Positions 2,295-53,360 of a DNA stretch of 64,000 bases are shown here, piece by piece. The translations under genes were made by a program, and so were the position numbers. The notes below the pieces were generated by a model. It did not search any database. It worked only from the letters and a program-made list of their open reading frames with translations, and had not been told where the DNA came from. The stretch is from Planctomycetota bacterium (GTDB lineage: Bacteria > Planctomycetota > GCA-002687715 > CAIWVZ01), in contig JBGANV010000006.1 in NCBI GenBank assembly GCA_044222185.1, forward strand, positions 224,001 to 288,000, in the 5' to 3' direction. How positions within the stretch are numbered: the first letter of the stretch is position 1; the number at the start of each line of letters is the position of its first letter.

Positions 2295-2906
2295 GTGGAA
2301 CGACGACCGTCGACACGCGATCGCGACCGAGAACTCGACCACTGCCTGCGAACCGCGGCACCGGCGCGCAACGTGCCGGCGACCGTCGCGCTCGTGGTGA
2401 TCGCCGTCGCGGCCGTGAGCGGGGTGCCTTTTCTCGCGCGAATCGAACCGTCCGTCGGCGCCGCGGTCGCGGATCAGATCACGCGCCCGGTTTGGGAGGG
2501 AACGCACGACGCGTCCTGGTCCGTCGCCGCGGCGGAGCCACCCGATCGGGCCTTCATGAGCGCGTCCCGTCACGACGTCGCGGGCGACGCGGCGGCGTGG
2601 GCGGGCATCCCTCAGCCGGGATGGATCGCTGAGCACCTGTTCGTCGTCAGCGTCGGCACCCCGGCGACCCACGATCCCATCCTCGCCTGGAGCCCCTCGG
2701 CCCCGATGACCGTCGCGCTTGGCTGCGTGCGAGTCGTGAAGGCCATCCCGTCCGGTGAGCCCGCCGATGACCTGGACGCGACGACGACGATCCTGGGAGC
2801 CTCGCCCGTGTTCCTCGCCGGGTTTCTCATCGAAGTGACGCGCCTCGACTTCGACGTGAATGGCGTGCTCGTCACGTCCGCCCAGGTCGACTGCAGCACG
2901 CTCTGA
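2295..2906 (+). CDS. Hypothetical membrane-anchored protein; C-terminus resembles the shared beta domain of neighbouring secreted proteins
   Basis: AAGGAG RBS before GTG 2295; hydrophobic 'VALVVIAVAAVSGVPFLA'; ends 'PVFLAGFLIEVTRLDFDVNGVLVTSAQVDCSTL'. Confidence 0.55.
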   Translation: MERRPSTRDRDRELDHCLRTAAPARNVPATVALVVIAVAAVSGVPFLARIEPSVGAAVADQITRPVWEGTHDASWSVAAAEPPDRAFMSASRHDVAGDAAAWAGIPQPGWIAEHLFVVSVGTPATHDPILAWSPSAPMTVALGCVRVVKAIPSGEPADDLDATTTILGASPVFLAGFLIEVTRLDFDVNGVLVTSAQVDCSTL

Positions 2907-2966
2907 GACCTCCGGGCCGCGCGGCGACACGAGGTGCGCGAAGCCGTGCACCGGCGGCTCCGCCAC

Positions 2967-2996
2967 TTGCGCACAGCGCGCAGCGCGGCCTATGCT
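2967..2996 (+). promoter_or_regulatory. Putative sigma70 promoter for the 3037 gene
   Basis: TTGCGC (2967-2972), 18 nt spacer, TATGCT (2991-2996), about 40 nt upstream of the start. Confidence 0.45.
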
Positions 2997-3036
2997 CATC
3001 GGCGCGGCGACGCCGACGTGCCGCGAGGAGGCCCCG

Positions 3037-4752
3037 ATGAGAACCGCCCGTCCTGCCCTCGTACTTGCCCGCGTCGTGATGGCGTTCCTGCCAATCACCG
3101 CGGGGTCGCTCTTCGGTCAGTCCGCGTGTCAGCAAACGCTGCCCGCAGGATGGGACGGGCTCGACGGTCCGGCGACCGTCGGCAATCCGTTCAACGTGAA
3201 CCTGTCGCAGAAGTGGCAGTACGTCTACGACTCGAGCAACTTCGTGATCCAGGCGCCGATCTCGATCACGCAGCTCTACGTTCGCGCCGCGCTCCCCGGT
3301 TTCACCGGACCTGGCGGGACGCTCAACAGCCTCGTCGTGACGATGGCGTCGTGTCCGTTCAACTTCGCGGCCGCGAGCGCAACGATGAGTGCGAACCTCG
3401 CGAGCGACGCGACCGTCATGCGGACGGGCGCATGGACGTCCGGGGCGATCGCCGCGGGCGGCAACACGGGAAGCTGGATCTCGCTGAACCTGACGACTCC
3501 GTTCAACTACAACCCGGCGCTCGGGCTCGATCTCGTCGTGCAGATCGAGCGCTGTGGCGGCGGGACCATCGGAACGAATACCGATCACGTGACCGGTGCG
3601 ACGAACGCGTCGCGTGTCGGATCCGGCAATAGTTGCGCGCCGATCAGCGGGGGCTCACCGACCGGCACCGTTTCGATCTTCCGGATCGACTACGTGGCGG
3701 GGACGCCGCGCTGGCAGGTGAACCAGCCCGCCGCGCATTTCGACATCGACGGCCAGACCAACGACGCATGCGCGGGACCGATATCGGCAACCCGCTGTGC
3801 GGGCGCGTCGATGACGGCGAACTTGACGAGCACGGCCGCGGCGTCGCCGTGGGATCTGGCGATCGCTCCCGGTTCAGGCGTTGCCGGCGGCGCGGGCGGA
3901 CTCGTTCTTCCCGGCGGCCAGGTCGTGAACGTGAACCTGGCTTCACCAGGCCTCACGTTCCTCCTCGGAGCCTCGTTCCAGACTCCGTTCATTCCGCTCA
4001 GTCTGCCGTTCACGTTCCCCGTCGCACCATTCGATCTCACCGCGCAGATGGTGCTGCTGACCCCGTCCGTCGCCGGGGGCATCGCTCTCAGCGCGGCGAA
4101 CGAAGTCCACATCGTGAGCGGAGGCGTGGTCCCCGGGCCGACCGCCGACGACAGCTTCGTGACGGTCGTACCGGCGCAGCCGCCCCTTCATTGCCCCGCC
4201 ACGCTGCCGTTCTTCGGTGTCAACTACACGCAGGTCCACGTGATCTCGAACGGCCGGATCATGTTCAACGTCGTCGATACGGACTACAGCCCGACGGTCG
4301 CCGAGGCCATCGCGGGGTCGCCGTTCGTCGGTGTGTGGTGCGACCTCGCGCCGCAGCAGGGCGGCTTGATCTCGATCACGATGCCGACCGCGAATCTGTT
4401 CCGTGTCACGTACGCGGGCGTGCCCTTCTACAACTCGCCGACGAACAATCCGACCTGGTACATCGAGCTCGACTCGTCCACGGGCGCGGTGACACTCAAC
4501 GGGTTCGGGGCATTCACCCAGTTCGTGCCGGCCGCGGGTACGGTCACGGATCAGTGGATCGGAATGAGCGTTGGCGGTGGCGTCGCGACGGACGCGGGAC
4601 AGACCACGTACACCCTCGGGCTCAGCCCGGGACCGTCGAATGCCACGGACATGATCTACCGCCTGGGGCTGGGAGGCACGCTCACGCCGGGCGTCATGTC
4701 GCTGATCTTCACGCCGAACTCCTTCGGCAATTACGACTGGACCGGGCTCTGA
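3037..4752 (+). CDS. Secreted three-domain protein, paralog 1 of 3 (C-terminal nidogen/NIDO-like region)
   Basis: GAGGAGG RBS; signal peptide ending SLFG|Q; collinear similarity to 49707 and 51600; 'LPFFGVNYTQVHVISNGRIMF...WCDLAP' is NIDO-like. Confidence 0.8.
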   Translation: MRTARPALVLARVVMAFLPITAGSLFGQSACQQTLPAGWDGLDGPATVGNPFNVNLSQKWQYVYDSSNFVIQAPISITQLYVRAALPGFTGPGGTLNSLVVTMASCPFNFAAASATMSANLASDATVMRTGAWTSGAIAAGGNTGSWISLNLTTPFNYNPALGLDLVVQIERCGGGTIGTNTDHVTGATNASRVGSGNSCAPISGGSPTGTVSIFRIDYVAGTPRWQVNQPAAHFDIDGQTNDACAGPISATRCAGASMTANLTSTAAASPWDLAIAPGSGVAGGAGGLVLPGGQVVNVNLASPGLTFLLGASFQTPFIPLSLPFTFPVAPFDLTAQMVLLTPSVAGGIALSAANEVHIVSGGVVPGPTADDSFVTVVPAQPPLHCPATLPFFGVNYTQVHVISNGRIMFNVVDTDYSPTVAEAIAGSPFVGVWCDLAPQQGGLISITMPTANLFRVTYAGVPFYNSPTNNPTWYIELDSSTGAVTLNGFGAFTQFVPAAGTVTDQWIGMSVGGGVATDAGQTTYTLGLSPGPSNATDMIYRLGLGGTLTPGVMSLIFTPNSFGNYDWTGL

Positions 4753-4766
4753 CCCGAGCCAGACCC

Positions 4767-6057: not shown

Positions 6058-7755
6058 TCAGTGTCCCAGCACGAGGTGGAGGCCGTTCGTGAGTGCGAAC
6101 CCGTTCACTCCGGCGAGGAGCGCCTGCAAGTCGACCGGGAAGCAATCGAGTGCGGGGTCATTGGGGATCGTCGACGTGAACGACCAGGCGCCGGCGCCGT
6201 CCGTCGTCAACGTGAGGAAGATCAACATGCCACCTTGCTGCAGGTAGAGGGTGCAGGCACCGAACAGGGGCTGAGGCGTTCCGCCCGGGGGGCTCACCAA
6301 CAAGATGCCGGACGCATTCGGGTCGGCGCCCGTGATCGTCAGCGTGCCCGGCTGTCCGAGCAGCGGCAGCCCGCCGTTGAGCGTCGGCGGCACCGTGCCA
6401 CACGAAGTTCCGAACTGCTGCGACGCGGCGTCGTGATGGGAGATGGCGAGGGTGAACGGCCCACCGATCGACGTCGACCACGATCCCACGAAGAACGTGT
6501 ATGTCGTCAGAGGGTTCGCCGTGAACGTGACCTTCGACTGCACGCTGCACGTGTCGTCGTTGCAGGCCACTTCGGTGAATGCGCCGCACGTCCCCGAGTA
6601 GACGGTGACGAGCGTATCGAAGCCCGCAGCGCCGCCTTCAGTGGCGCACAGGCTCAACGTGACCGTGCGCGGGCACGTCGCCGGGTTCGTGTAGGTGTAC
6701 CAGATGTCGCGCCCGTGAGCGGCGCACGTCGACGTTGGGGCGTCGGTCGTGGCCGTCGTGTTGTTTCCAACCACGAGGCCATCAGTGACGGCGATGGGGG
6801 ATCCGCACGAGTCGTTGGGCGCGAGAACTCCGATCGTGATTGCACCGTTGGAGCTGCGTGCCTGCGCATCCGACACCGTGAACGGAACCGACAGCACGCT
6901 GGGCGGGGTTGCCGGCGGAATCGCCGCGATCAGCGTGAAGACGCCCGCCGGGCCCTCCGTCATCGGTTGGAGCGGTCCGCCACCCAGTGAAGTGGTATCG
7001 GCCACGACGGTGATCCCCGTGCTCGCCGGGTTCGCGCCCGGGCAGGCATTGACGGTGAGCGTGACGGGCGCGCCAGCGAGCGCCGCTGACGGCGACGCGG
7101 TGCCTGTGCCAACCGGCGGCGTCGATCCGGTCGACGTGTAGTGGACGCGGATGTTGGCGAGGCGGCCACCGGCCGTCGTGCTACCGAGATTGCCACCGAA
7201 CGGGCCGAGCGCCGTCGCGCTCCACGCCTTGCCGAATCCGATGATCACGCGGAGGTTCGCATCCTGGGTCAGCGTCTGGCCGACGTTCTGCGTTCCTGCC
7301 GTGCCGGTCGTGTAGTTCAGCGTCGTCGAGCTCGATCCGATGTTGACTGCGAAACCCTGCGTCGCGCCCGGTGCGATCGTCCTGCTGATGGCCGGATAGG
7401 GCGTGAGGATGTTGGACGCGCCGGTCGTCGACGTCCCGAGTGACGTGACGGTTCCCGAAGACGCAAGCGTCCATGCGGCTGCGGTCGACGCCACCGTGGT
7501 GTGCGTGCCGCCGGCCGTCACGTACCACGTCTGCACCGGCCACGTGCCCGGGTCGAGGTTCACGTCGAACCCGGTGATGGTCATCGTGTCCGTGGCCGAC
7601 AGGTTGACGAGATCGAACATCACGCCATTCTGGCCATTGCCACCCACGTTCGTGGTGAACAGCGTGAGTTCGCTGCTGCATTGCGCCAGCCCGATGGTCG
7701 ACGCGACGATGACGGCTGCGAGAACTCGTGCGAGGAAACACTTCTCGAATTGCAT
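6058..7755 (-). CDS. Secreted multidomain beta-rich protein with Cys-rich 'PNDxC...CNDDxC' module and C-terminal shared domain
   Basis: GGAGG RBS before ATG 7755; signal peptide GLA|Q; 'APNDSCGSPIAV', 'RDIWYTYT', 'FDTLVTVYSGTCG...ACNDDTC'; tail 'IPNDPALDCFPVDLQALL...FALTNGLHLVLGH'. Confidence 0.8.
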   Translation of the reverse strand: MQFEKCFLARVLAAVIVASTIGLAQCSSELTLFTTNVGGNGQNGVMFDLVNLSATDTMTITGFDVNLDPGTWPVQTWYVTAGGTHTTVASTAAAWTLASSGTVTSLGTSTTGASNILTPYPAISRTIAPGATQGFAVNIGSSSTTLNYTTGTAGTQNVGQTLTQDANLRVIIGFGKAWSATALGPFGGNLGSTTAGGRLANIRVHYTSTGSTPPVGTGTASPSAALAGAPVTLTVNACPGANPASTGITVVADTTSLGGGPLQPMTEGPAGVFTLIAAIPPATPPSVLSVPFTVSDAQARSSNGAITIGVLAPNDSCGSPIAVTDGLVVGNNTTATTDAPTSTCAAHGRDIWYTYTNPATCPRTVTLSLCATEGGAAGFDTLVTVYSGTCGAFTEVACNDDTCSVQSKVTFTANPLTTYTFFVGSWSTSIGGPFTLAISHHDAASQQFGTSCGTVPPTLNGGLPLLGQPGTLTITGADPNASGILLVSPPGGTPQPLFGACTLYLQQGGMLIFLTLTTDGAGAWSFTSTIPNDPALDCFPVDLQALLAGVNGFALTNGLHLVLGH

Positions 7756-10181: not shown

Positions 10182-10766
10182 ATGCTGGTCGGCGAACCGA
10201 AGTCATTTGCGATCGAGTCCGAAGTGACGGAGTTCGTGCCACACCGGAGCCAGATCGGGCTTGGCTGCTTCAACGTTCATGTCGCGGGGCACCGATTCGG
10301 AGTGATGGCGCCGGATGCGTCGATGCTCGGGTGTTCGTACGCGGAGGTCGGCCGGCGCTTGCAGCGGCGGGGAACCCATCGCGCCGCCGTCGCGTTCACG
10401 TGTTCGGCGGACTCGATCGCGACGCTGTGGATCGCGCATCGGTATCCGCCGGCACTCGTTGGCCCCGAGCCGACGCCGACCGAGGTCGACGCCGTCGCGG
10501 AGATGGTCGCGAATCACACGGATTGGGCACCCGACGGCGACGAAGCGTTCGACGACGGCAGTCACGTGCTTCAGTTCGATCTCGAGGAGAGCGTGCGACT
10601 GGTCGGGTTCCGCACCGACGGGACCTGGGCGCCGAGGGATGGCCTCGTCGCGGACGCCTGGATTCCGGCGGGCGACTACTACGAAGTCCTGCGCGAGTGG
10701 CGCGAGCGGTTCGAGCTCGCCTGGCTCCGCAACCTGCGCGGGAACCCGGACAGCGCCTCCCCGTGA
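10182..10766 (+). CDS. Immunity protein, Imm42-like
   Basis: 'MLVGEPKSFAIES...LGCFNVHVAGHRFGV..PDASMLGCS', 'DEAFDDGSHVLQFD...VRLVGF' match the Imm42 pattern as I recall it. Confidence 0.7.
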   Translation: MLVGEPKSFAIESEVTEFVPHRSQIGLGCFNVHVAGHRFGVMAPDASMLGCSYAEVGRRLQRRGTHRAAVAFTCSADSIATLWIAHRYPPALVGPEPTPTEVDAVAEMVANHTDWAPDGDEAFDDGSHVLQFDLEESVRLVGFRTDGTWAPRDGLVADAWIPAGDYYEVLREWRERFELAWLRNLRGNPDSASP

Positions 10767-11018: not shown

Positions 11019-14000
11019 TCACTCCAACAGCAGCTCCCCGAACTGTGACGAGTCCTTCGTGCCCGTCAGGCCCGGTGTCCACTCGGTCGCGCCACGGTAG
11101 CCATCCCCGTCGTTGTCGTTCGCGATGAAGCCGAAGCCCAGGCGTGTGCCAGGCGTCAGCGTCACGCGGGGGAGGACCGTCGAGGGGACGACGAATTCGT
11201 AGACGATGTGGCCGTCGTCTCGCTTGACGATCCCCACGGGGGCGTCGACCACGCGCCCCGTCTTGCCGCCGTCACCGCCATACCAGCACCAGACGATGGG
11301 ACCTTCGATCGTCAGCGCGGCGCCGAACTCCAGATCGCGGGCGTCGTACCCCAGCGACGTCGACGGAGCGACGGAGACGGCGATCTGCACCGAGTCTCCC
11401 TTCCAGCACGAGGTGCCGATCTCGGGTTGACAGAACACGTCGTCCGTCACGTCGATGGCGACCGCGAGTCCCGTGGCGCCATAGCGGACGGCTCCGCGCA
11501 TGGACCCGAGCTTGCCCTGGACCGACGCGAACTCCTCCGGCGCCCAATCGGAGAGGTCCCCGTCGGCTTTCACCTTGTCGATGGTTGGTCTTGCGTGCAG
11601 CTCCGGCGCGACCGTGTACGCGACCGTCGTGGTCGCGCCCTCGCCGACTCGCGCACGCAGGTCTCCTCGCGTCGGTCCACCGGTGCGCGTGAGTTCGAAG
11701 TCGGTCGTCTGTACGGCGTGTCGCTCGTGGCGCACGGACGTCTGCCCGCCGCGCGTGACGGCGATCCCCCCCGGCGCCTCGATCGTCACGTCCGCGGCCG
11801 GTCCTTCACCGAGCGAGAGCGCGCTGACCGTGACCTTCGTCGGCTGACCGTCACGCAGCCGGATCCGATCGCCGCTGAATCGGAGGACCCGCTCTTCACG
11901 ACGCGTGACGATCCCGATGGTCTCGCCGTACGTGATCGTGCCGCCGGCGCAGAACCGCAGAAGCGCGAAGCTTGGCGGCAGGCGGTCGCCGACGTGAGCG
12001 TCCACGGTGATCGAGCCGCGCGGCGGGATCGTCAGCGTCCGGCGCCATGCGGGGACGTGGGGCCACGACACGAACGGCATGAGCCACGTCGCCACGCCCG
12101 TGATCGGCCCGTCGGTGAGGTTCTCGATCCGGGCGCGGATCTCGGTCCCCGCGACGGCGAGGGGCGCCGCGTTCTCGATCGCGACCACGGGCGCGTCGGC
12201 ACTCACGCCCGCGCAGACGGAGAACGAGCCCGTCACGGTGCGGCCCGATGGAATCGTCGCGATCACCGTGACGAGGGAGCGACCCGGCGGCGCGTCAGGC
12301 TTGCGGCGGAACTTCAGCGTGATGGTCTCGCGGCCCCCGGCGGCGACGCTCAGTGAGGATTTCGACAGCGTGACCTGAAGGTTCTGGGGTGCCTCCACCG
12401 CGAGAATCAGCTCCGCGCTTGCCTCCCGTCGGTCGTTCAGGACGTCGACGCTGACTGCGTGCTCGTCCGCGTCGTTCGCGTCGATCGCCAGGATGCCGTT
12501 CTTTGGCGACGGGACGACGCTGATCATCCCGTTGCCCGTGACGCCCTCCGCGAGATTCTCGCGCCAGTAAGCGGATGGACTGCGGTCGCCTTCCGTCGGG
12601 TCGAGCGATGGTGCATCGGCGTCGGCCTCGCGCGCGTCCAACTCGGCGAGCACGGTGACGACGGCGTTCGATCCGATGGGAACCTCCACGGCGTCGCCTT
12701 TCACCGTCAGCGATCGCAGTGGGGTCTCGAGCAGGTCCGTGATCCACACCTGCTTGAGCGGATGACGGAACGCGATCTTCGCCGTGTCGTCGCGCAGGCG
12801 GCTGTTCCAAAGCCGCAAGACGACCCGCTTCGGACCCGGTGCGGACGTGCGATGCTCCCATTTCGCTTCTGGATTGCCCGCAGCCTTCAACGCCTGAAGC
12901 AGGACGCCGCGGGGCTCGACGCGCACGAACTCGGCGCGCCGACCCAGGGGGCCTTCGTGCTTCGCCTCCAGTCGAGACAGCGCCGGTTGATTGAACGCCT
13001 GCGCATGCCACGGGAAGTCGGCCTCGCGCCAGTCGCCGAAGCCAAACTGGAGAGCGTAGTGGAACACGTGCGTGCCGTGCATCGTCTCGAAGGGTGCGCC
13101 GTCGGGAAGGCGTCGCGCGGGCGGATCGATCCAGAGTCCGGACGGCCAGCCCGTCGTGCTGCGAAGGAGGTTCAGCCCGAGCCCATGCACCTGGGAAACG
13201 TGTCCGGAGATGGCGCCGTTCGAGATCACGACCATGGACGTGGGCCCGACCGGATCCTGCATCCGGTCCCGCACGAGCCCGACGTCTTCGAGCTTCTCCA
13301 TGCGGATGACCTTCAAGTCGCCGGGAACGGCACTCTCCGGAAGCTCGTCGGCCGGTCCGACGAGGATGCGAAGCCCGGGATGGTCCGAATCGAGTTTCAG
13401 ATCTCCATAGCGGCGCGCCGTCGACCGCGTGATCGTGGACGTCACACCCGCACGCCCGAGTCGCCGCGCGATCGCGTTGGCGAGTTCCCATCGCTCGGCC
13501 GCCGCGGTGGACGCCACGACGATCTCGGCGATCGCCGGGGTCGCGGGCGAGCTCGCGAGCCCGAAGAATTGGCTGAACGTCTCGTCGAGAGTCCATGGGT
13601 CCTGTGAAACGTCGACGTCGCGGCTGAACGGACGCCCCACGATGGCCGCCGCCGTTTCGTAGATGGGTGCCGCTCCATCGGCGCGCAGGTTCGCGGCGAA
13701 CTCGGCCCGAAGGAGCTTGTCCTTGCCCTTCCAGTCGATGATCTCGGTCGTGAACTCGATGCGGGGGGCGTCGGGCGCGAGGCGGATGTGCTCGCGCTTG
13801 GTGAAGTCGGGATAGGTCGCGACGACGACGATCTCGTCGGGGTGCAACGGGTCAGGCGGTTGCACCACGGCCGGCACGTCGTTCGGCTCGTAGCGGCGGC
13901 CCGTCGTCGCGATGTGCCACGGGCCTTCGCCCTGGCCGGGGAGGATCGGGTACTCATCCAGTTCGACGATCCGGTTGCACGGACCGGACCAGATCGACTT

Positions 14001-15824: not shown

Positions 15825-15939
15825 GATGGACCCTTCCGGGTTTTCTGGCCGCTCAGTTTGCACGGAAGCGTGCCGCCCTTCACGGTCGGAGCCCGGTTAC
15901 AATCCGCGCCTTCCATCAGGTCCACGAGAGCCACGCACC

Positions 15940-17013
15940 ATGCCGACCCCTGCCCGGTTCGCCCTCGTTCTACTCGTCACCATTTCCGCGCTCGCCCCCG
16001 CGCAGGTCGCGGCCAAGAACGGCATGCGCAAGGGCGAGTGGCGACCGAACGATGCTCCGCCTGGATGGAAGGTCTACACCATCGGGAACTATCAGTTCCA
16101 AAGCAACGCGACCGAGAAGGCGGTGAAGAAGGTCGGCGCCCACCTGAACGCCATGTTCAAGGTCTACATGGAGCGCTTCCCCACGGGGCGCACGATCACG
16201 AAGCAGTTCCCCGTGAAGATCTTCAAGGACCGCGACGGCTTCCTCGACTACGGCGCTCCTCCCATGGCTGCGGCGTATTACTCACCCGTCGACAAGGAGA
16301 TGGTTGGGTACGACACCGGCATGGTCGACGGCGAGATGACCAAGGGCGGAACGACCGGCAAGTCGATCCCCGGGCTCGAGGACCTGGAGCGCGCGCACAC
16401 CATGGACCTCATGGGAGTCATCGCGCACGAAGGGTGGCACCAGTACTTCCACTGGGTGTGCACGTCGAAGATCGCGTTCCCGTCCTGGTGCGACGAAGGT
16501 ATCGGAGAGTACTTCTACACGGCGCGCTTCAAGGACGGGAAGATCGAGCTCGGCGCGCCCAACACGATCCGCCTCGGGACGATCCAGTGGGCGATCAAGA
16601 AGCAGAAGTACATCCCGTTGAAGGACCTCGTCACCTTCGATCAGCAGAAGTACTACGCGCAGGCCGGACTGGCCTACGCCGAGGGCTGGTCGCTCGTCCA
16701 TTTCTGGAGCGAGCACCCTGATTACAAGAAGCAACGGCTCGTGTCGAAGTTCGTGACGACGTTCGCGGATCAACACTCCATCGACGAAGCCGTGAAGGCG
16801 ACGTTCACGAAGGTCGACTGGGAGAAGACCGAGAAGGACTGGAAGGCATGGGTCCTCGCCATGAAGTCGCCCGAAGACGCCGCCATGAAGAAGCTCGCCG
16901 AGATGTTCGGCAAGGACGTGGGCGATGACCCGACACCGACCGGTGCGAAGGAGAAGGACGGCGGCGAGCAGGCCCCGGAGTCCAAGCCTGCCGCCGATGA
17001 GAAGAAGCCGTAG
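15940..17013 (+). CDS. DUF1570-type secreted gluzincin metallopeptidase
   Basis: Signal peptide APA|Q; 'IAHEGWHQYF' HExxH plus 'WCDEGIGEYF'; 'YAEGWSLVHF'. Confidence 0.85.
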   Translation: MPTPARFALVLLVTISALAPAQVAAKNGMRKGEWRPNDAPPGWKVYTIGNYQFQSNATEKAVKKVGAHLNAMFKVYMERFPTGRTITKQFPVKIFKDRDGFLDYGAPPMAAAYYSPVDKEMVGYDTGMVDGEMTKGGTTGKSIPGLEDLERAHTMDLMGVIAHEGWHQYFHWVCTSKIAFPSWCDEGIGEYFYTARFKDGKIELGAPNTIRLGTIQWAIKKQKYIPLKDLVTFDQQKYYAQAGLAYAEGWSLVHFWSEHPDYKKQRLVSKFVTTFADQHSIDEAVKATFTKVDWEKTEKDWKAWVLAMKSPEDAAMKKLAEMFGKDVGDDPTPTGAKEKDGGEQAPESKPAADEKKP

Positions 17014-17037
17014 CCGGGGCGTGCACGCACGCGTTGC

Positions 17038-17511: not shown

Positions 17512-17603
17512 CCGGGTCTCCAGGGATGCGGCTCTCGGAACTCTGCCGGCGTCGTCGTCGGCGCGGCGGATGATAGTCGCCGCGGCGCGACCGTGCGCGA
17601 GTT

Positions 17604-22243: not shown

Positions 22244-23401
22244 ATGCAGAAAGTGAAGCACGTTGCCGCGGCAGCCGCGGCCCTGTTCGTCGTTTCATCG
22301 TTCGCGGTCGCGCAGAACGCTGAAATGCAGCACAAGGACGGAACGACGACGTTCACCACGCGCGGCGGCAACAACGCGGTTCCGGCTGGCGTCTACCAGC
22401 GTTATCCGGCCGACCAGATCTGCGGCGCGCAGACGCTGAAGTCGTTCGCGATGATCGTTCAGGACCAGGTTGCGACGACGGTCGAGAACTTCGTGATCAC
22501 CGTCCGCAGCAACGACGCCACCGGCCCGGCGACCGGGTCACCGGACATCACGGCGACGGGCATTCTCGGTTCGGCCACGTTCACCGGCGCATCCTTCGGC
22601 ACCACCGCGACCGCCGTCGCCGCGGTCGTGACGATCACGTTTGCTGGTGCTGGCATGCCGCTTCCGACCGCCGCGGCTGGCGCCGTGCCGGGTGATGACA
22701 TCTACTGCGGCGTCGATCTCCCGCAGACGACCGGAACGAATCCCGCATGGCCGACCGATGGCTGCTCGACGCACGCCAACGCGACGTCGGGGACGGACCT
22801 CGGAGAGCAGTTCCGCACGACCGCCGTCGGATACACCGGCGTCGCTGGCGTGATGGGATGCGGGTGGGGCGTCAACTACTCGACGGGCGTCAAGGCGCTC
22901 AGCGCCGGCAACCGTTCGTACAGCCCGGCGATCAAGCCCGGCCAGGACGTCCTTCAGCCGTTCGCCGACAACGCCGCGGTGTTCGTCGGTGGGACGACCG
23001 CAGGCACGAACCCGAACTTCGGGTACGCCGGCATCTTCCCTGACGTCGTGCGTGGCGACGGCTTCGGCCTCCGCCTCCGTTCGAACGCGCCGGTGGGATC
23101 GTCGGTCATCTTCGCGTTCGACTTCGTTTCCGGACCGCGCACGGGTCTGGGAGTGGACGGAGACCTCTGCCTGAACTTCGCCTCCCCGTCGCTCACGATC
23201 TTCCCGGTCACGCTGACGACGGTCGCTCCCGGTGCGTTGCCCCAGTACGGCACGTCGCACACGAGCGAACTGATCATTGGACCGTTCAGCGGCCTCGCGG
23301 GTATCGCTGGCGCCGGGAACATCTTCGGTCAGACCGGTACGATCGACGCGACGGCGACCGGTGGCGTTCGCCTCTCGACGCTGGCTCGCGCCAACTTCTG
23401 A
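22244..23401 (+). CDS. Secreted Gly/Thr/Ala-rich hypothetical protein (possible abundant surface protein)
   Basis: Signal peptide AVA|Q; own promoter and terminator; C-terminal 'NIFGQTGTIDATATGGVRLSTLARANF'. Confidence 0.75.
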   Translation: MQKVKHVAAAAAALFVVSSFAVAQNAEMQHKDGTTTFTTRGGNNAVPAGVYQRYPADQICGAQTLKSFAMIVQDQVATTVENFVITVRSNDATGPATGSPDITATGILGSATFTGASFGTTATAVAAVVTITFAGAGMPLPTAAAGAVPGDDIYCGVDLPQTTGTNPAWPTDGCSTHANATSGTDLGEQFRTTAVGYTGVAGVMGCGWGVNYSTGVKALSAGNRSYSPAIKPGQDVLQPFADNAAVFVGGTTAGTNPNFGYAGIFPDVVRGDGFGLRLRSNAPVGSSVIFAFDFVSGPRTGLGVDGDLCLNFASPSLTIFPVTLTTVAPGALPQYGTSHTSELIIGPFSGLAGIAGAGNIFGQTGTIDATATGGVRLSTLARANF

Positions 23402-38293: not shown

Positions 38294-38692
38294 ATGACAC
38301 TGCGTCAAACCCTGGTGCTCGGGACCATCTTCGCCGCGCTCTTCACCACCACGACCGTCGCCCAGATCGCCGATGGCTTCGATCTCCGTCTCCGTGACTC
38401 GACGCGGATCGGCGAGAACCACGTCGGCATTCAGGGCGGCGCGGCGACGGCGATCCAATTCGACGTGCGCGAGGACGCCATCGTCGCCCTCTTCGCGGCG
38501 CGTGCGACCGCCGTGGGCGTTCCAGACCTCGACACGGTGCTCCTCCTCGACGTGCGGGCCATGCGTGCAGGCGACATCTACGCCATGCAACTGCGAGTGC
38601 CGCAGATCCAGGGAGAGTTCGTTCTGAAGGCGTTCATGCTCGTAGGCGACCAGCTCGCGCAGAGCGACCCACTGACCGTCCTGATCCGCTGA
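38294..38692 (+). CDS. Small secreted hypothetical protein (single beta domain)
   Basis: GGAGG RBS; signal peptide TVA|Q; ends 'RVPQIQGEFVLKAFMLVGDQLAQSDPLTVLIR'. Confidence 0.7.
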   Translation: MTLRQTLVLGTIFAALFTTTTVAQIADGFDLRLRDSTRIGENHVGIQGGAATAIQFDVREDAIVALFAARATAVGVPDLDTVLLLDVRAMRAGDIYAMQLRVPQIQGEFVLKAFMLVGDQLAQSDPLTVLIR

Positions 38693-40258: not shown

Positions 40259-41047
40259 TCACGGCAGGATGCAGGTACTGATGGGGTTCGTCACCTTCGG
40301 GAAGCCGAGGGCGTCGATGATCCCCACCTGGAAGTGGAGGGGGAGCCCAACGATCTGCGGGATGTTGGGGATGAAGCACGACAGGTTGGTCGCCACGCCC
40401 AGGACGTCCAGGTTGCCCTGGAAGTTCGCGAACAGGAACGGATCCGGCGTCGGGAAGGAGAGCGTGAAGAGGATGTCCGGGTCGAGAGCGACGAACACGG
40501 GCGGGAACGAGATCCCGACCTCGGTCGTGATGGAGCCCGCTGCGAAGTACGGCATGTAGGCATCAGCGGCCGAGCTGACGTCCATCGTCATGGTCTGGCC
40601 CACGTGTGGCTGCGCGGTGACCGTCAGGAGCGGCGACGTGCTCGCGGCGGCGCGCACGGTGAACGGCGCCCATGACGTGCTGTACGACGCGGCCCCGACC
40701 GCCTTGTACTGGACCTTCAGGTAGTAGAGGCCCGATGACGCGTTCGTCGGGACGGCCTGAGTGTCGGTCGCGGACGCTCCGGCGGCCACCGTGATGGCGT
40801 TGAAGCCGCAGAAGCCCAGAGGCCACGGCGCGACCGGCCCGGCGGGGGTTCCCGAGTGGACCGTCGTGAAGAGACAGCTCGATGGGAATTGGAACCCGGC
40901 GCCGGAGATGTCCGTCACGGTGAGGGTGACGGTCTGGCCGGGCGCCACCGGGTCCGGCGAGATCGTCGAGCAGATGGTCTGAGCGCCGGCGACGGCGCAG
41001 ATGGCGGCGAACACGAGAGCGTGGGTGAACGAGCGATGCAGTTTCAT
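40259..41047 (-). CDS. Secreted two-domain hypothetical protein with C-terminal shared domain
   Basis: Signal peptide AGA|Q; Ig-like N-domain 'PDPVAPGQTVTLTV'; tail 'FQGNLDVLG...IPNIPQIVGLPLHFQVGIIDALGFPKVTNPISTCILP'. Confidence 0.75.
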   Translation of the reverse strand: MKLHRSFTHALVFAAICAVAGAQTICSTISPDPVAPGQTVTLTVTDISGAGFQFPSSCLFTTVHSGTPAGPVAPWPLGFCGFNAITVAAGASATDTQAVPTNASSGLYYLKVQYKAVGAASYSTSWAPFTVRAAASTSPLLTVTAQPHVGQTMTMDVSSAADAYMPYFAAGSITTEVGISFPPVFVALDPDILFTLSFPTPDPFLFANFQGNLDVLGVATNLSCFIPNIPQIVGLPLHFQVGIIDALGFPKVTNPISTCILP

Positions 41048-42541: not shown

Positions 42542-45457
42542 ATGTCGCACAGAACGCACACGCTCCGCCTCGGCGTGCTGCTCGCGGTCCTGACGTCCCT
42601 ACCGCTCTCCGCCCAAGCGCCCATGGCGGGCACCTACACGGTCGATTCGGCCCAGCCTGCCGGCACGACGAATTTCCCGACGCTGGCCTCCTGCGTCGCG
42701 GCGCTCACGTCGCGCGGCGTCAGCGCTCCCGTGACGGTCGACCTCATCCAGAACACGCCGGCCGACTTCACGACGTCGACACAATGGCGATTGCTCCAGA
42801 GCGCTGGCATCAACGCCTTCGGAGGCGCAGCGATCCTCGTGCTCGACCAGTTCCCAGGGGTTTCGGCCACGAATCGCGTGACGTTCCGCACGGGATCCCT
42901 CAGCCCGATCAGGCCCGTCGTGTTCGATTGCAGCGTGCACTCGGTCGGTGTCGGCGTGTTCTTCCAGGGCGCCGATTACGTGACGATCGAGGACATCGAG
43001 ATCAAGGGCGCGGCATACGACGGGATCATGCTCTATGGCGAAACGGGCATGTTCACGACGAACCTGGCGAACGCCGCCATGGACCACTGCTGGATTCGCC
43101 GCTGCCGCATCCACGATTGCGCCGGGACGGCGATCACCCTCTATGGCAATCCCTATCAGCCCGGGTTCACGCGCATAGAGAACAACTTCTTCTGGAACAA
43201 CATGAAGAACTGCGCGGGGCCGCTGACGAACTTCGGACGGTTCGGGCACATCTCCGGCAGGCGCAATCACGACGTGCAGATCGTCCACAATTCGTTCTAT
43301 CAGGACGTCACGATGCAGACGCTTCCGGGCGGTCTGACGCCGTGCATGATCGGTTCCAACAACTCGAGCGGTACCGCCTATGCCCTCTGCTCGGGTAACG
43401 CGTTCCAGATCGCAGGGTCCGGGACGACGGTCCCCGGGGGCTTCTATCGCTGGTACACGCAGGGTGCGATCACGAACGTCCCCTCGAGCGGCACCGGATA
43501 CGCCACGGGAACGCTTCTCGGCCACGGCCGCAACTTCTACTTCAACACGTCCGGCGGAACGACTTTCGCGATCGTCGGGTCGACGACGGTGGCGGATCTG
43601 CTCGGCTATCAAACGCTGACGACGCTCGACGCGAACTCGCAGGCGGTCGATCCCCAGTTCGCGGTGCCGTCGACGGGCAACCTGGACCTCGCGACCCAGG
43701 CGTCCCCCGCGGTCGATCAGGGAGTCACCGGACTCGGGATCACGGTCGACATCCATGGATCGCCGCGAATCGGCACCGCGCCCGACGTGGGCGCGATGGA
43801 AGCGCGGCCGCCGGTCCTCACCGCCAGTTTCGGAGCGAACGTCACGTCCGGGCAGTGCCCGCTGACGGTGAACTTCGCCGATCAATCGACGACCGGCGGA
43901 GGCCCCGCGGTCACCTCGTGGCAGTGGGCCTTCGACGGCGATGGGACCACACAGGCTACGACGTCGAATCCCACGTGGACGTTCACGCATACGGGGACCT
44001 ATTCAGTCAGTCTCGTGGTGTCGGACGGGACACAGACGGCCTCGCGGATCCGTACCAATTACATCGTCGTGTCGGACTCCACCGGACCGGTGTTCTCGGG
44101 ATGCCCCACGGGGCCGGTGCTTGCGCCAGCGAACCAGCCGAACTGCGCGGCCACCGTCACGTGGCCGCCGATCACGGCGAGCGATGGATGCGGGACCGTC
44201 ACGCTGACGTCGACGCATCAACCCGGCTCGCTGTTCCCACTCGGCACCACGCCCGTCACCTACACGGCTGTCGACAACCTCGCGCACGTCTCGACGTGCA
44301 CGTTCGACGTGACCGTGACGTCCGTGCAGCCGGCGATCGCAGTGCAGCCGCTCAATCGGCTTTTGTGCGTCGGTTCCACCGGCACGATCTCCGTGACGGC
44401 GGCCGCCGCAGGCCCTCCGCCCACCTACCAGTGGAAACGCGGGGGAGTGGCAATCCCGGGTGCGACGCAGTCCGTACTCACGATTTCCAACGCGACGACC
44501 GCCGACAGTGGTTCCTATACCGTGGTGCTCGACAACGGTTGCGGGACCATCACGAGCAACGCGGCGACCGTCTCCGTCCTCACCGGCCCGGTGATCACGC
44601 AAGGCCCGGTCAATGACATGCCGTGTGCAGGGACGCAGGTCATCCTCTCCGTCCAGGCGACCAGTCCTTCGCCGTTGTCGTATCAGTGGCGTCGCAACGG
44701 GGTCGTGATCGCGGGGTTGGACTCGCCGATACTCACGATCCCGAACGCGTTGGTCACGGACTCCGGGATCTTCGACGTCACGGTCAGCGACGTCTGCTCC
44801 TCGACCACGAGTCAGCCCGCGCTCATCCAGATCACTGCACCTCCGGCGATCGCAGCGCAGCCGCTTCCTGTGACGAGCTACCCGGGAGTGCCCGCGAGCA
44901 TCAGCGTCTCGGCCGCGAGTACCGTTCCAGTGACCTACCAGTGGCGGCAGAATGGGACGCCCATTCCGGGTGCAACCCAACCGGCGTACGTGATCGGGCG
45001 GTTGGTTCCGGCGGACGCCGGCATGTACGACGTGGTCGTCACGAACTCGTGTGGTTCGGTCACGAGCCAGGCCGTCCCGCTTTCGGTGACTCCGTTCACG
45101 CTCACGATCGATCAGCAACCCGGCCCTCACTCGGTCCACATCCATCACACGGGCGGGATCCCGTACATCGAGTACCTGTGCGCCGTCTCCTTCCACGCGG
45201 CGAATCAGACCCAGCCCGGGCAGGGACCCTGGTTCGGTCTCTTCATCGACCCAGGCGAACTCGTGACGGAGATCTTCGCCGCCGGACCTCCGTTCGTGGG
45301 ATTCCTCGACGCGAACGGAGACGCCGACTTCGCGACGCCTCCATTCACGATCACCCCCAATCTGTGGGGCACCCCGGTCTGGTGCGTCACGATCATGGGC
45401 GATTCGTTCTCGGCAGTCGTGTACGGCGCATCGAACATCGCCACGATGGCGCTGTGA
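42542..45457 (+). CDS. Large secreted protein: right-handed beta-helix + PKD + HYR + three Ig-like domains + C-terminal shared domain
   Basis: Signal peptide LSA|Q; 'GTYTV...NFPTL', 'DIHGSPR...PDVGAME'; PKD 'VNFADQS...SWQWAFDGDG...NPTWTF..TGTYSVSL'; HYR 'PGSLFPLGTTPVTYTAVD'; three 'YQW.R/Q.G..I.G...D.G.Y/F.V.V' repeats. Confidence 0.85.
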   Translation: MSHRTHTLRLGVLLAVLTSLPLSAQAPMAGTYTVDSAQPAGTTNFPTLASCVAALTSRGVSAPVTVDLIQNTPADFTTSTQWRLLQSAGINAFGGAAILVLDQFPGVSATNRVTFRTGSLSPIRPVVFDCSVHSVGVGVFFQGADYVTIEDIEIKGAAYDGIMLYGETGMFTTNLANAAMDHCWIRRCRIHDCAGTAITLYGNPYQPGFTRIENNFFWNNMKNCAGPLTNFGRFGHISGRRNHDVQIVHNSFYQDVTMQTLPGGLTPCMIGSNNSSGTAYALCSGNAFQIAGSGTTVPGGFYRWYTQGAITNVPSSGTGYATGTLLGHGRNFYFNTSGGTTFAIVGSTTVADLLGYQTLTTLDANSQAVDPQFAVPSTGNLDLATQASPAVDQGVTGLGITVDIHGSPRIGTAPDVGAMEARPPVLTASFGANVTSGQCPLTVNFADQSTTGGGPAVTSWQWAFDGDGTTQATTSNPTWTFTHTGTYSVSLVVSDGTQTASRIRTNYIVVSDSTGPVFSGCPTGPVLAPANQPNCAATVTWPPITASDGCGTVTLTSTHQPGSLFPLGTTPVTYTAVDNLAHVSTCTFDVTVTSVQPAIAVQPLNRLLCVGSTGTISVTAAAAGPPPTYQWKRGGVAIPGATQSVLTISNATTADSGSYTVVLDNGCGTITSNAATVSVLTGPVITQGPVNDMPCAGTQVILSVQATSPSPLSYQWRRNGVVIAGLDSPILTIPNALVTDSGIFDVTVSDVCSSTTSQPALIQITAPPAIAAQPLPVTSYPGVPASISVSAASTVPVTYQWRQNGTPIPGATQPAYVIGRLVPADAGMYDVVVTNSCGSVTSQAVPLSVTPFTLTIDQQPGPHSVHIHHTGGIPYIEYLCAVSFHAANQTQPGQGPWFGLFIDPGELVTEIFAAGPPFVGFLDANGDADFATPPFTITPNLWGTPVWCVTIMGDSFSAVVYGASNIATMAL

Positions 45458-49534: not shown

Positions 49535-49706
49535 CACGCCAAGTCCCGCGGGAATCACGTCGTCGTGAGCGCCGCGGCGTTGGCCTGCTGCGTGCAGGCG
49601 GTGAAGCGTGCGTCGTTCTCCCGGTGAAGCGTTCGATCGATCGACCGTCGTGTGCCCCGCCATCGGCGTGCCGATCGACGTCCATGAGGAGCGTCGAGAC
49701 AGCAAC

Positions 49707-51434
49707 ATGAAGCGTCACACATCATTTGCCGTTGTCGCGATCGTCGTCGGATTCCTACTCCCGACATCCGCCCTCGCCCAGGTGCAGTGCTCACAGACGC
49801 TGCCGAACGGATACATGAACGTGGACGGACCCACGTTCCTCGGGAACCCGTTCAACTCGACCTCGGCCCAGAAGTGGCAATGGGTGTACGACTCCTCGCA
49901 CTTCCTCGCGCAGGGGCCAATCACCATCACGGATATCGCGGTGCGCCCCACGTCACCCACGGTGACAGCAGCCGCGACGACGTTCTCGAGCTTCAAGGTC
50001 CGGCTGGGATCGAGCCCGAACAACTACACGCTCGCCTCGCAGAGCGCCACGTTCGCGAACAACCTCACGACCAACCAGGTGCTCGCCTACAACGGCGTTT
50101 GGAGTACGGGAGTGATCACGGCATCGGCGGGAACGACGGCCAACTGGATCCAGTTCGGCCTCACGACGCCGTTCACGTTCAACCCCGGCTTGGGACAGGA
50201 CCTCGTCGTCCAGGTCGAGAAGTGCTCGAGCGCTTCGGCGCAATTCCAGCTCGATGCCATCAGCGGGGCCTCGGGGACGGTCGGCGGCAACTCCTACGGA
50301 AACACCTCGGCATGCACCGCGGCGTCGCGCAGCACGTCCTACAACGAAACGTGCCCGATCATCAAAGTCGACTACTCGCAGAACCTGACGCCGAATTGGC
50401 AGCTCAATTCGCCCCAGTGCGACATGAACATCAACGGCGTGCAGAATTCCGCGTGCTCGGGTGGTCCCATTGCCGTGAACATCTGCCCCGGCCAGTCCGG
50501 CACGGTGAACCTCTCGACGTCGTTGACGTTCCCGCCGTTCGACCTGCTGGTGACGTTGGGGCAGCCGGTTCCGTTGGGCGGCGGTGGATTCACGACGACG
50601 CACGGCCAGATCGTCAACATGAACCTCGCGGATCCGACGCTGTTCCTGCTGAACGGTGGGGCGTTCCAGCCGCTCCCAAGCTTCTCGTTGCCGGTGACCC
50701 TGGCGGCCGTCGGCGGGTTCTCCGCGCAGATGATCGTTCTCGATGCGACCCATCCGGACTCCTTCCGTCTGTCCGCGGCGAATCGCCTCGCCGCAGTGGC
50801 CCCGTTCGTCGCGGGCCCCGTTGGTGACGACACCTACGTCTCCGTCGTGACGGGCGGACCGGCCGTCTGCGGGCCAGCGTCGTTCACCTACTACGGCGTC
50901 GCGTACACCACCGTCAACGTCCAGTCGAACGGACGGCTGATGTGGGGTGGCGCCGGGATCACGAACGACATCACGCCCAGCAACACGTTGGCGCTCACCC
51001 AGAATCCGGCTGCGGGCGCGTGGGTCGACCTGTCGCCGCCGGCTGGCGGTTTGATCACGATCAACTCGCCCGGTCCCGGGCTGTTGCGTGCGAGCTGGTC
51101 GAGTGTGCCGTACTTCAATCAGCAGGCACTCGTGACGAACTGGTACATCGAGCTCGATGCGACGACCGGTGCGATCACGATCTCGGGACTCGCGAACTTC
51201 CCCGTGCACCCGACGGCCGCGAACATGTGGCTCGGCGTGAGCGCAGGCCAGTTCGGGCCGGCGACCGATGGTGGCGCGATCACCTATGCGCTCGGCGGCC
51301 CCACGGCGGGCCCACCGGGGCTGCTCGACATGGTCTATGCCTACGGACCGACGGGCACACTCACCCCGGGTATCAACACGCTCATCTTCACGCCCAACGG
51401 GTTGGGCAACTACAACTACACGGCGCTGCCGTGA
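49707..51434 (+). CDS. Secreted three-domain protein, paralog 2 of 3
   Basis: Signal peptide ALA|Q; 'TLPNGY..VDGP..LGNPFN...QKWQWVYDSSHF'; 'YYGVAY..VNVQSNGRLM'; ends 'FTPNGLGNYNYTALP'. Confidence 0.8.
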   Translation: MKRHTSFAVVAIVVGFLLPTSALAQVQCSQTLPNGYMNVDGPTFLGNPFNSTSAQKWQWVYDSSHFLAQGPITITDIAVRPTSPTVTAAATTFSSFKVRLGSSPNNYTLASQSATFANNLTTNQVLAYNGVWSTGVITASAGTTANWIQFGLTTPFTFNPGLGQDLVVQVEKCSSASAQFQLDAISGASGTVGGNSYGNTSACTAASRSTSYNETCPIIKVDYSQNLTPNWQLNSPQCDMNINGVQNSACSGGPIAVNICPGQSGTVNLSTSLTFPPFDLLVTLGQPVPLGGGGFTTTHGQIVNMNLADPTLFLLNGGAFQPLPSFSLPVTLAAVGGFSAQMIVLDATHPDSFRLSAANRLAAVAPFVAGPVGDDTYVSVVTGGPAVCGPASFTYYGVAYTTVNVQSNGRLMWGGAGITNDITPSNTLALTQNPAAGAWVDLSPPAGGLITINSPGPGLLRASWSSVPYFNQQALVTNWYIELDATTGAITISGLANFPVHPTAANMWLGVSAGQFGPATDGGAITYALGGPTAGPPGLLDMVYAYGPTGTLTPGINTLIFTPNGLGNYNYTALP

Positions 51435-51441
51435 GACGCTT

Positions 51442-51462
51442 CGGCCGCGAGGTTCGCGGCCG
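51442..51462 (+). terminator. Hairpin just after the paralog 2 stop
   Basis: CGGCCGCGA-ggt-TCGCGGCCG, 9 bp stem, weak U-tract. Confidence 0.45.
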
Positions 51463-51599
51463 GTGGTTCCCATAACGGAGTGCTTTTGCTTTTGGTGTTT
51501 CCTGCGCAGTGGCGTGATGGCCGGCAACATGGATCCCCATCCAGTTGGCGTGTCGCAACGGCTCGCAGGTTTGTGAGATGTGTGGAGGTCAACAGGATC

Positions 51600-53360
51600 A
51601 TGAAGGTTCAGAATTTGGCGCTCGTTGCCGTCGCGACCCTCGCGGTTGCCGGCGGAGTCTTCGGACAGTGCGTCGAGCAGAGTCTGCCGGCGGGGTATGA
51701 GACGTACACCGCGAACTACATCACGGGGACGCCGTTCGGCGGCACGGCCGATCAGCACGTGCAGTTCATCTGCGATTCGTCAGAGTTCGCGGCCAGCGGC
51801 CCGGTCGTGATCAAGGAGGTCTACGTCCGCGTGTTCGATGCGAACACGGGCGGTTTCTATCCGAGCGTCGAAGTGAGCCTCGCTTCGGCCGTGAACGACT
51901 ACGACAACACGGCGGCGAACATGCTCAGTTTCGCGGGCAACATGGGGCCCGACCTGACGCTGGTCCGCCCGGCGGCAGCGTTCAACCCTGGTCCGCAGCC
52001 CGGCCAGCGTTTCGTTCCGCTCGGGATCCAGAACACCTTCATCTACAACCCGACGCTCGGCAACGACTTCCTCGTCGACATCAAGCGTTGCGGCGCCGGC
52101 ACTCCGTGGACGCACCCGACGTTCGCCGGCAACGTCCTCGACGCGAAGGGCCCGACGACTCCGATCCGCATGCGCCGCTACAGCCTCACGGCGACGACGG
52201 CCTGCACGACGGGCTTGGCTCCGACGACGAACCAGAGCGACTTCTGCGCCGTCCTCCTCGTCTCCTACTACCCGGTCGGCAGCCCGCAGGCCGAGTGGCA
52301 GGTCAACACGGCGAACGCCAGCTTCGACCTCGATGGCAACGGCTTCAACCGTCCCTGCGGCGGCGCCATCGACGTGACCCGGTACTCGAACCAGCCGATC
52401 AATGCGAACCTCAACAGCGCGCTCCTCGGCAACCCGTGGGATCTGGCGTTCGGGTTCGGCTTCGGCGTCCCGGCCAGCGCCGGCGGATTCACGCTCGCGA
52501 ACGGCGATGTGGTGAACGTCGACCTGCTCTCGGCCCCGAGCTTCCTGCTCGGCCTCACATTTGCCGTCCCGTTCTCGGCGACGACCTTGCCTTTCGCCCT
52601 CCCGGCGCCGATCACGCTCGACCTCTATGCGCAGATGGTGATGCTGAACCCGGCAACGGCCGGCGGATTCAATCTCAGCGCCCTCACGCAGCTCCACCTG
52701 CAACCGTCGCAGGCAGTGTTCCCGGGACCGGCCGGCGATGACGAAGCGCTGAGCGTTCCGCTCTGGGCCGTCGGTGGCGCTCCGCTGTCGATCCCGTTCT
52801 ATGGCGTGAACTACAACACGTTCAACTTGATCTCGAACGGCCGCATCATGTTCGGCACGCCGAACACGAACTGCTGCCCGGGCACGACGCAGGCGACTGC
52901 GGCGACGGCCGCGCTCGCGGATTCGGCGTTCGCTGCCGTCGCGTGGTGTGACATGAACCCGTCGATCGGCGGGAACATCACGGTGACGAGCCCGGGTGCG
53001 GGCCAGGTTGCCGCGCACTGGTCGAACGTTCCGTACTTCGGGAACCCGACGACGTCGAACACGTTCGACCTCATCGTGGATGCCGTGGCGAACACCGTGC
53101 AGTTCAACTACACGGCGTTGCAGGCGTTCCCGTCGGCCCCGAGCACCTCGCCAGAGCAGTTCATCGGCGTGTCGGCCGGTGTGGGCGTGGCGACGGACCA
53201 GGGCGCGACCACGTTCGCCGTCGGCGGACCGATCACCGGCCCGGCCAACAACGGCATGGTCTATCAGTGGGCGGTGAACGGCCCGACGATCACCGGCATC
53301 CAGTCGATCATCTTCACGTGGAACACCGTGTCGAATCAGTACGACTGGGTTGCGTTCTGA
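51600..53360 (+). CDS. Secreted three-domain protein, paralog 3 of 3
   Basis: Signal peptide VFG|Q; 'SLPAGY...GTPF...VQFICDSSEF'; 'EWQVN...FDLDG'; 'IPFYGVNYNTFNLISNGRIMFG'; 'AWCDMNP'; ends 'NQYDWVAF'. Confidence 0.8.
   Translation: MKVQNLALVAVATLAVAGGVFGQCVEQSLPAGYETYTANYITGTPFGGTADQHVQFICDSSEFAASGPVVIKEVYVRVFDANTGGFYPSVEVSLASAVNDYDNTAANMLSFAGNMGPDLTLVRPAAAFNPGPQPGQRFVPLGIQNTFIYNPTLGNDFLVDIKRCGAGTPWTHPTFAGNVLDAKGPTTPIRMRRYSLTATTACTTGLAPTTNQSDFCAVLLVSYYPVGSPQAEWQVNTANASFDLDGNGFNRPCGGAIDVTRYSNQPINANLNSALLGNPWDLAFGFGFGVPASAGGFTLANGDVVNVDLLSAPSFLLGLTFAVPFSATTLPFALPAPITLDLYAQMVMLNPATAGGFNLSALTQLHLQPSQAVFPGPAGDDEALSVPLWAVGGAPLSIPFYGVNYNTFNLISNGRIMFGTPNTNCCPGTTQATAATAALADSAFAAVAWCDMNPSIGGNITVTSPGAGQVAAHWSNVPYFGNPTTSNTFDLIVDAVANTVQFNYTALQAFPSAPSTSPEQFIGVSAGVGVATDQGATTFAVGGPITGPANNGMVYQWAVNGPTITGIQSIIFTWNTVSNQYDWVAF

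Follow-up and report, generated by a model that had tools for sequence, protein, structure and literature searches.

A C-terminal beta-sandwich domain family on signal-peptide proteins, apparently without a Pfam or NCBIfam model, identified from a Planctomycetota contig

Candidate proteins at the locus

The window analysed here is a stretch of 64,000 nucleotides from the Planctomycetota bacterium assembly GCA_044222185.1 (contig JBGANV010000006.1, positions 224,001 to 288,000), in which up to nine proteins, encoded by the open reading frames (ORFs) labelled A to I, had been proposed from the sequence alone to share a beta-rich domain for sorting or assembly. The protein of gene C ends in a domain of about 120 residues that recurs on many proteins with unrelated passengers, here called the C-tail family, and the protein of gene F ends in a divergent relative of it. 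That this family of C-terminal domains exists, with C and F as members, is in our judgement close to certain.

The window has a G+C content of 66-70% throughout, and gene calling was based on third-position G+C (GC3). All nine peptides quoted in the sequence-only reading as closing strands were recovered as exact matches in the six-frame translation, each where it had been placed (Table 1). A stop codon directly follows the peptide in six ORFs (A, C, D, E, F and G), and the peptides of B, H and I lie 212-219 residues upstream of the stop. Direct reading of the sequences found a signal-peptide-like start in eight of the nine ORFs, all but A.

Compared with each other, the tails gave little. Smith-Waterman scores of the 36 tail pairs, each set against 200 shuffles, did not rise above chance except among the three paralogs; the C-F score was reached by 66 of 200 shuffles, the F-G score by 37 and the D-E score by 1 (one pair among 36). 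BLASTP of tail against tail returned no significant matches. Pfam and NCBIfam assigned nothing to A-F, H and I, apart from a weak choice_anch_U match on F (E 0.0021) that falls under the curated cut-off. Resemblance at the protein level emerges with a family profile and not pairwise, and for C and F only.

Table 1. Window coordinates of the nine candidate ORFs and of the domain copies assigned within five of them. "Quoted peptide" is the peptide named in the sequence-only reading.
Feature	Position	Strand	Remarks and basis
A	2145-2906	+	ORF, gene status uncertain, without signal peptide; quoted peptide ends at stop
B	~3037-4752 (ORF 2860-4752)	+	Paralog of H and I; quoted peptide internal
B, degenerate internal copy (putative)	3802..4116	+	B/H/I alignment and flanking domains
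C	6058-7755	-	565 aa; quoted peptide ends at stop
C, canonical C-terminal domain	6061..6423	-	121 aa; all family hallmarks; ends Gly-x-stop
D	22244-23401	+	Tail 23012..23398; quoted peptide ends at stop
E	38294-38692	+	Small secreted protein; quoted peptide ends at stop
F	40259-41047	-	262 aa; quoted peptide ends at stop
F, divergent C-terminal domain	40262..40651	-	Residues ~133-262; family HMM, shuffles, hhalign
G	42542-45457	+	Tail 45092..45454; quoted peptide ends at stop
H	49707-51434 (ORF 49605-51434)	+	Paralog of B and I; quoted peptide internal
H, degenerate internal copy (putative)	50454..50801, approximate	+	Architecture; 27/300 shuffles, not significant alone
I	51600-53360 (ORF 51435-53360)	+	Paralog of B and H; quoted peptide internal
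I, degenerate internal copy (putative)	52362..52715, approximate	+	4/300 shuffles; phmmer

The C-tail domain family

A phmmer search with the 121-residue tail of C against 1.84e9 representative sequences returned 281 matches at E<=1e-3, of which 54 reach E<=1e-10 and 3 reach E<=1e-30. The representatives stand for clusters at 50% identity, giving a family of at least 281 such clusters; a word-index search with the same tail returned only 2 relatives. The positional and passenger counts that follow are drawn from the best 150 of the 281 matches. A family hidden Markov model (HMM) matches 144 of these 150 proteins. The six that it misses (P0008, P0012, P0060, P0079, P0095 and P0096) are tandem-repeat proteins that had scored via many weak stretches, each insignificant, over positions ~47-104, which contain a T-D-x-x-G-x-W hairpin; they were rejected as members and left out. 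Pfam assigns SdrD_B, CarboxypepD_reg, Big_13 and TIG repeats to five of the six (P0008 was not scanned).

The domain stands at the C-terminus in 138 of the 144 members, and two copies are found by the family HMM in none of them (0/144). The phmmer alignments agree: 109 of 145 single-stretch matches finish 0-1 residue from the end of the protein and 126 of 145 within 5. The end point is also precise, since the stop falls exactly one residue after Gly120 in 111 of the 120 domains that have this glycine, among 141 aligned. The last residue in the 126 terminal members is Y in 26, F in 16, T in 15 and L in 12. Further hallmarks, counted over the same 141 domains, are a pair of cysteines (C8, 125; C57, 131), P20 (128), G23 (133), P87 (132), Q100 (139), [T/S]112 (137) and N113 (113), together with the hairpin motif T74-D75-x-x-G78-x-W80 (T74, 116; D75, 101; G78, 139; W80, 113). 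The two short motifs singled out in the sequence-only reading, 'TDGAG.W' and 'F.G.LD..G.A', fall on this real hallmark.

No Pfam or NCBIfam model and no PDB sequence covering the C-terminal domain was found. A Pfam scan of the six tails at E<=10 gave no family, the family profile against PDB sequences gave antibody noise only (E>0.4), and full-text literature searches found no description of such a domain. The family therefore appears undescribed in Pfam and NCBIfam, and the prediction from sequence of a conserved, beta-rich C-terminal domain is borne out.

Passengers and export signals were examined in 92 full-length members, defined by a Met start and a length of at least 200 residues, after exclusion of the six repeat proteins and of five whose copy is internal. 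A signal-peptide pattern, a crude regular expression, was passed by 72 of the 92. Passengers are diverse: 31 Pfam families were recorded, none in more than 14 members, the commonest being GBD_T9SS_assoc (14), FG-GAP (7) and DUF7948, MopE, SBBP and PPC (3 each). The NCBIfam passengers are choice_anch_X (8), HAF_rpt (3), ELWxxDGT_rpt (2), CoaZ (1) and choice_anch_J (1). The sequence-only reading had placed such a domain at the end of signal-peptide proteins with different passengers, and the best 150 matches support this.

Gene C (GC3 0.82; its identical 565-residue database entry is P0001) encodes a signal peptide, an N-domain without a family match, a PPC/GBD-like domain with an 'ND.C' motif and the C-terminal domain. 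In its two closest relatives, P0002 and P0003, the terminal domain is 69% and 65% identical to that of C, against 38% and 23% for the passenger. Residues ~310-440 of C, before the terminal domain, show an 'ND.C ... CNDD' pattern that recurs one to three times in many members (P0038, P0057 and P0010 among them). This region corresponds to the GBD_T9SS_assoc and PPC matches (14 and 3 of 92 members), and C itself has no Pfam match.

Carriers of the domain appear to be Planctomycetota. In the ESM Atlas, Planctomycetota is the commonest phylum in the clusters nearest to the tails of C and F, with 6-18 members per cluster of known phylum; beyond these phylum records of few members, the earlier label "lineage-specific" is not supported. 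Scanned over contigs, the C tail by itself gave 156 pattern sites, none of them in a relative. With a six-member alignment, the scan reached four loci on contigs of metagenome-assembled genomes of Phycisphaerales or Phycisphaerae, matched through the N-terminal passenger only and with the domain at none. These loci (L001-L004) carry the galactose-binding-like passenger of the family, and the terminal domain is absent from the 12-kb stretches.

Which tails in the window belong to the family

The family HMM, built from 141 relatives of the C tail, was scanned over the 673 six-frame ORFs of at least 50 residues in the window. C was matched at E 1.1e-47 over profile positions 2-128 and F at E 2.2e-4 (16.3 bits; positions 11-120, or 110 of 128); the next match is noise, at E 0.52. 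The score of the F tail was reached by none of 300 shuffles, hhalign placed F on the family over 108 columns (P=1.6e-4), and F as query matched C-terminal domains of family members among the 150 proteins, with a best E of 7.5e-4. F retains P20, G23, G78, P87, Q100 and T112-N113, and has neither of the two cysteines, nor W80 or the terminal Gly; a narrow HMM of three C-tail sequences scored it at 5 bits only. These profile comparisons confirm F as a divergent family member. The gene (GC3 0.90; P0152 in the database) encodes a signal peptide, a small N-domain and the divergent C-terminal domain, and F, like C, begins with a signal peptide and carries the domain once, at its very C-terminal end.

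For D, E and A, and possibly for G, we consider it probable that the tails share with the family only the general look of beta-rich secreted proteins, with alternating hydrophobic residues, Gly/Pro turns and a final strand, and are not copies of the domain. No pairwise tail score involving them exceeded chance. Their family HMM scores of 0.6-1.8 bits were reached by 22-54 of 300 shuffles (G 22, D 41, A 54), E giving no alignment, and their hhalign P values are 0.16-0.35, no tail besides F and the B/H/I set falling below 0.16. D (P=0.35), E (P=0.30) and A (P=0.16 over 14 columns) were rejected as members, hmmalign aligning almost nothing of any of them. With F added to the profile, no further window ORF was recruited.

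G sits between the two groups. Its tail scores 1.8 bits, yet its last ~50 residues fall in the family register in hmmalign and retain D75, G78, Pro-Asn and Ser-Asn. The passenger of G contains Beta_helix, choice_anch_Q, PKD, HYR and three Ig_3 domains, and its PKD/HYR/Ig part is homologous to P0004 (E 2.6e-73), a protein that ends in a canonical copy. Word-index searches with the G tail and with the F tail each returned only the query itself, which left no relatives for building a profile and tempers the case for chance likeness. An AlphaFold2 model of the G tail, made from the single sequence without an alignment, is uninformative at a predicted local distance difference test score (pLDDT) of 37. 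The tail of G is possibly a very divergent copy, on evidence that is suggestive only.

Internal copies in the paralogs B, H and I

The sequence-only reading had placed the same closing strands inside the three paralogs. Taken by sequence, the match is weak: hhalign of the B/H/I alignment against the family profile gives P=0.042 with 94 columns in register, and the scores of the internal segments were reached by 152 (B), 27 (H) and 4 (I) of 300 shuffles. The segment of I, searched with phmmer against the 150 proteins, matched P0138 (E 0.0026) and P0034 (E 0.01), both in their C-terminal domains.

The domain architecture carries more weight. B and H share a homologous N-domain with P0023 and P0064 (phmmer E 1e-18 to 1e-23; HMM E 8e-34 and 5e-29), and in P0064 this shared domain leads directly into a canonical copy, which MAFFT aligns with the segment inside the three paralogs. 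On the other side, B, H and I end in a domain of ~200 residues whose homologue in P0132 (E 6.6e-16) is the region after that protein's internal canonical copy. Because both flanks of the segment are domains that flank canonical copies elsewhere, the segment is read as a decayed copy, and mostly on this architecture we suggest that B, H and I each hold one. Of the hallmarks, the internal segments keep Q100 and little else: both cysteines, W80 and the terminal Gly are gone. This loss would fit a constraint on the hallmarks that is tied to the terminal position. The ~200-residue C-terminal domain carries an 'FYG...SNG' motif, seen also in P0132, in P0112 and weakly in P0003, and neither it nor the shared N-domain has a Pfam or NCBIfam model.

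Of the nine proteins first proposed, C and F thus stand on statistical grounds and B, H and I mostly on architecture; D, E and A fall away, and G lies between. The sequence-only reading found something real but overcounted.

Predicted fold and comparison with known systems

An AlphaFold2 model of the C tail, computed from a 43-sequence alignment, has a pLDDT of 96.9 and a predicted template modelling score (pTM) of 0.88, and is all-beta with 11 DSSP strands. On the strength of this model, we are confident in predicting that the C-terminal domain of C is a compact immunoglobulin (Ig)-like beta-sandwich of ~120 residues. Foldseek against the PDB returned only generic Ig-like sandwiches, at a template modelling (TM) score of ~0.5, among the 50 matches listed. 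These include the C-terminal domain of Nir2, superoxide reductase, chitin-binding proteins of the lytic polysaccharide monooxygenase (LPMO)/CBP21 type, or carbohydrate-binding module (CBM) family 33, and fibronectin type III (FnIII) domains.

The closest parallel is the T9SS (type IX secretion system) cargo of Bacteroidota, with its type A C-terminal domain (CTD), Por_Secre_tail, a domain that is removed, the cargo becoming linked to a surface glycolipid. The layout is the same, as had been noticed from the sequence: a Sec signal peptide, unrelated passengers and one Ig-like beta-sandwich at the C-terminus. Some passenger types are common to both, namely GBD_T9SS_assoc, SBBP, GEVED and choice-of-anchor domains, and both have a conserved C-terminal strand or motif. 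For the T9SS CTD, this motif ('motif C-t.') is required for export, and the domain is described as a compact Ig-like fold in which seven strands form a 3+4 sandwich (PMC11285876).

The C-tail domain is longer than the T9SS CTD, at ~120 residues and 11 DSSP strands in the model, and the conserved Cys pair and the fixed Gly-x end belong to the C-tail family. Neither C nor F matches Por_Secre_tail or TIGR04183 at E<=0.01, and no T9SS CTD model is among the families shown for the 92 members, which are 25 of the 31 from Pfam and all 12 from NCBIfam. By sequence, then, the C-tail domain is not a T9SS CTD. The 50 matches that Foldseek listed include no chain of a T9SS CTD. The carriers also differ, being apparently Planctomycetota in place of Bacteroidota, and to our knowledge Planctomycetota lack a T9SS. 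A 2016 survey places the system in Bacteroidetes only (PMC4793230). None of the T9SS core components SprA, PorV, PorU and GldKLMN was found among the 39 window ORFs scanned.

Other C-terminal tags on signal-peptide proteins, such as PEP-CTERM with its exosortase, LPXTG and GlyGly-CTERM, share the position. PEP-CTERM and similar tags associate with choice-of-anchor and HAF-repeat passengers, types also seen in the C-tail family. They differ in kind, in that PEP-CTERM-type tags combine a short motif with a transmembrane helix and a tail of basic residues, whereas the C-tail domain is a folded beta domain of ~120 residues without a hydrophobic helix. The tails examined here end in beta strands, contain no hydrophobic helix and match no NCBIfam model of this kind. 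The Ig-like repeats of the Prealbumin-like, CarboxypepD_reg and SdrD_B types give weak single-sequence matches through the T-D-x-x-G-x-W hairpin; these repeats are tandem and internal, and none of six carriers is matched by the family HMM.

Possible function

Several features together suggest a role in sorting or anchoring: the single terminal copy, the fixed end, the signal peptides, the unrelated passengers and a conservation that exceeds that of the passengers. By analogy with known C-terminal sorting domains, the domain is most likely a targeting or retention module that acts after Sec export. We give a probability of about 0.45 to the proposal that it serves in surface sorting or anchoring of the carrier proteins. 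The N-terminal signal peptide would export the carrier, and the domain would then fold in the periplasm, where the two conserved cysteines probably form a disulfide. An envelope component would recognise the domain through a conserved face and the fixed ...L-x-L-G-x-COOH end, and would either carry the passenger across the outer membrane or hold it on the cell surface. The disulfide, the partner recognition and the sorting or anchoring itself are inferred. That no member carries tandem copies and that the end point is fixed both speak for a signal, and the choice-of-anchor passengers point in this direction too, NCBIfam 'choice-of-anchor' domains being defined as lying upstream of alternative C-terminal sorting signals.

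Several points weigh against a role in sorting or anchoring. The domain is not at the C-terminus in 6 of the 144 members: P0053 has 19 residues beyond it, and in P0091, P0110, P0113, P0129 and P0132 the canonical copy is internal or directly follows the signal peptide. With the segments in B, H and I, these copies indicate that the fold does not depend on a free C-terminus. F has neither the Cys pair nor the Gly-x end, so that, judged from this sequence, any recognition motif is not universal. The scan of the 39 window ORFs contained no known secretion or sortase component, as the sequence-only reading had also noted. The positional counts cover the best 150 of 281 matches, the signal-peptide test is a crude one, and the taxonomic range comes from the small number of Atlas members with a record. 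A C-terminal position on mixed passengers is also expected of a terminal binding module.

Such a module is a serious alternative, although we think it rather unlikely. The domain would be a glycan-binding unit or an Ig-like stalk that tethers secreted proteins to a substrate, or to a surface polymer of the cell itself, with no sorting machinery involved. The generic Ig-like sandwich is what one would expect of it, LPMO/CBM33 chitin-binding, FnIII and superoxide reductase structures lie among the PDB neighbours at TM ~0.5, and the conserved W80, Q100 and N113 could line a ligand site; the internal and N-terminal copies, including those in B, H and I, favour it somewhat. Ig and CBM modules, however, are usually tandem and mixed in position, a habit at odds with a domain that is never doubled and nearly always terminal. 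The stop at a constant distance from Gly120 is likewise hard to accommodate, the passengers are mostly not carbohydrate-active enzymes, and the choice-of-anchor passengers again suggest the position of a sorting signal. A polymerisation or assembly domain, the reading also offered by the sequence-only account, in which edge-strand pairing with the C-terminal strand as donor would build a surface layer or fibre, is quite improbable: the conserved last strand and end point and the exposed edge strands of the model sandwich would suit it, but the passengers are too mixed for one polymer and tandem or paired genes are not seen.

Within the sorting or anchoring reading, a more specific and doubtful version is that the domain tags the cargo of a system not yet recognised, with which Planctomycetota export proteins across the outer membrane or attach them to the surface. 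Such a system would do the work of a T9SS with unrelated parts and would serve dozens of substrates per genome. The 64-kb window holds two terminal copies, canonical in C and divergent in F, and three that appear decayed. How large surface and secreted proteins of Planctomycetota pass beyond the outer membrane is poorly understood, and the domain offers a concrete handle on this problem. Its profile defines a candidate cargo set that can be listed genome by genome, and the domain allows phylogenetic profiling for partner genes. Should the domain turn out to be no more than a binding module, its family would still deserve a model and a name: it comprises at least 281 clusters at 50% identity, for which neither Pfam nor NCBIfam has a model.

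Other features of the window

The window also encodes DUF1570 and ThuA proteins, a 3-keto-disaccharide hydrolase, GFO/IDH/MocA oxidoreductases and xylose-isomerase-like TIM barrels, which we take to be typical of Planctomycetota. A 1000-residue ORF on the minus strand (24114-27116) fuses an extracytoplasmic function (ECF) sigma-70 factor, with region 2 at residues 15-76 and region 4 at 106-156, to five CarboxypepD_reg repeats, which give the sigma factor a long extension of Ig-like type. Also on the minus strand are a 1614-residue alpha-mannosidase of glycoside hydrolase family 38 (GH38) with a C-terminal CBM9-like domain (11019-15863) and an 874-residue MurC ORF (56502-59126) whose ligase domains begin at residue ~429; either its start probably lies later or the protein has an N-terminal extension without a family assignment. 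On the plus strand, the gene at 10182-10766 belongs to the Imm42 immunity-protein family (E 3.6e-8), and an adjoining toxin gene was not recognised. Finally, the AT skew at 16001-20000 is +0.17, far above the rest of the window; minus-strand permease genes of ABC transporters lie there, and the skew is probably an effect of the codon composition of membrane proteins.

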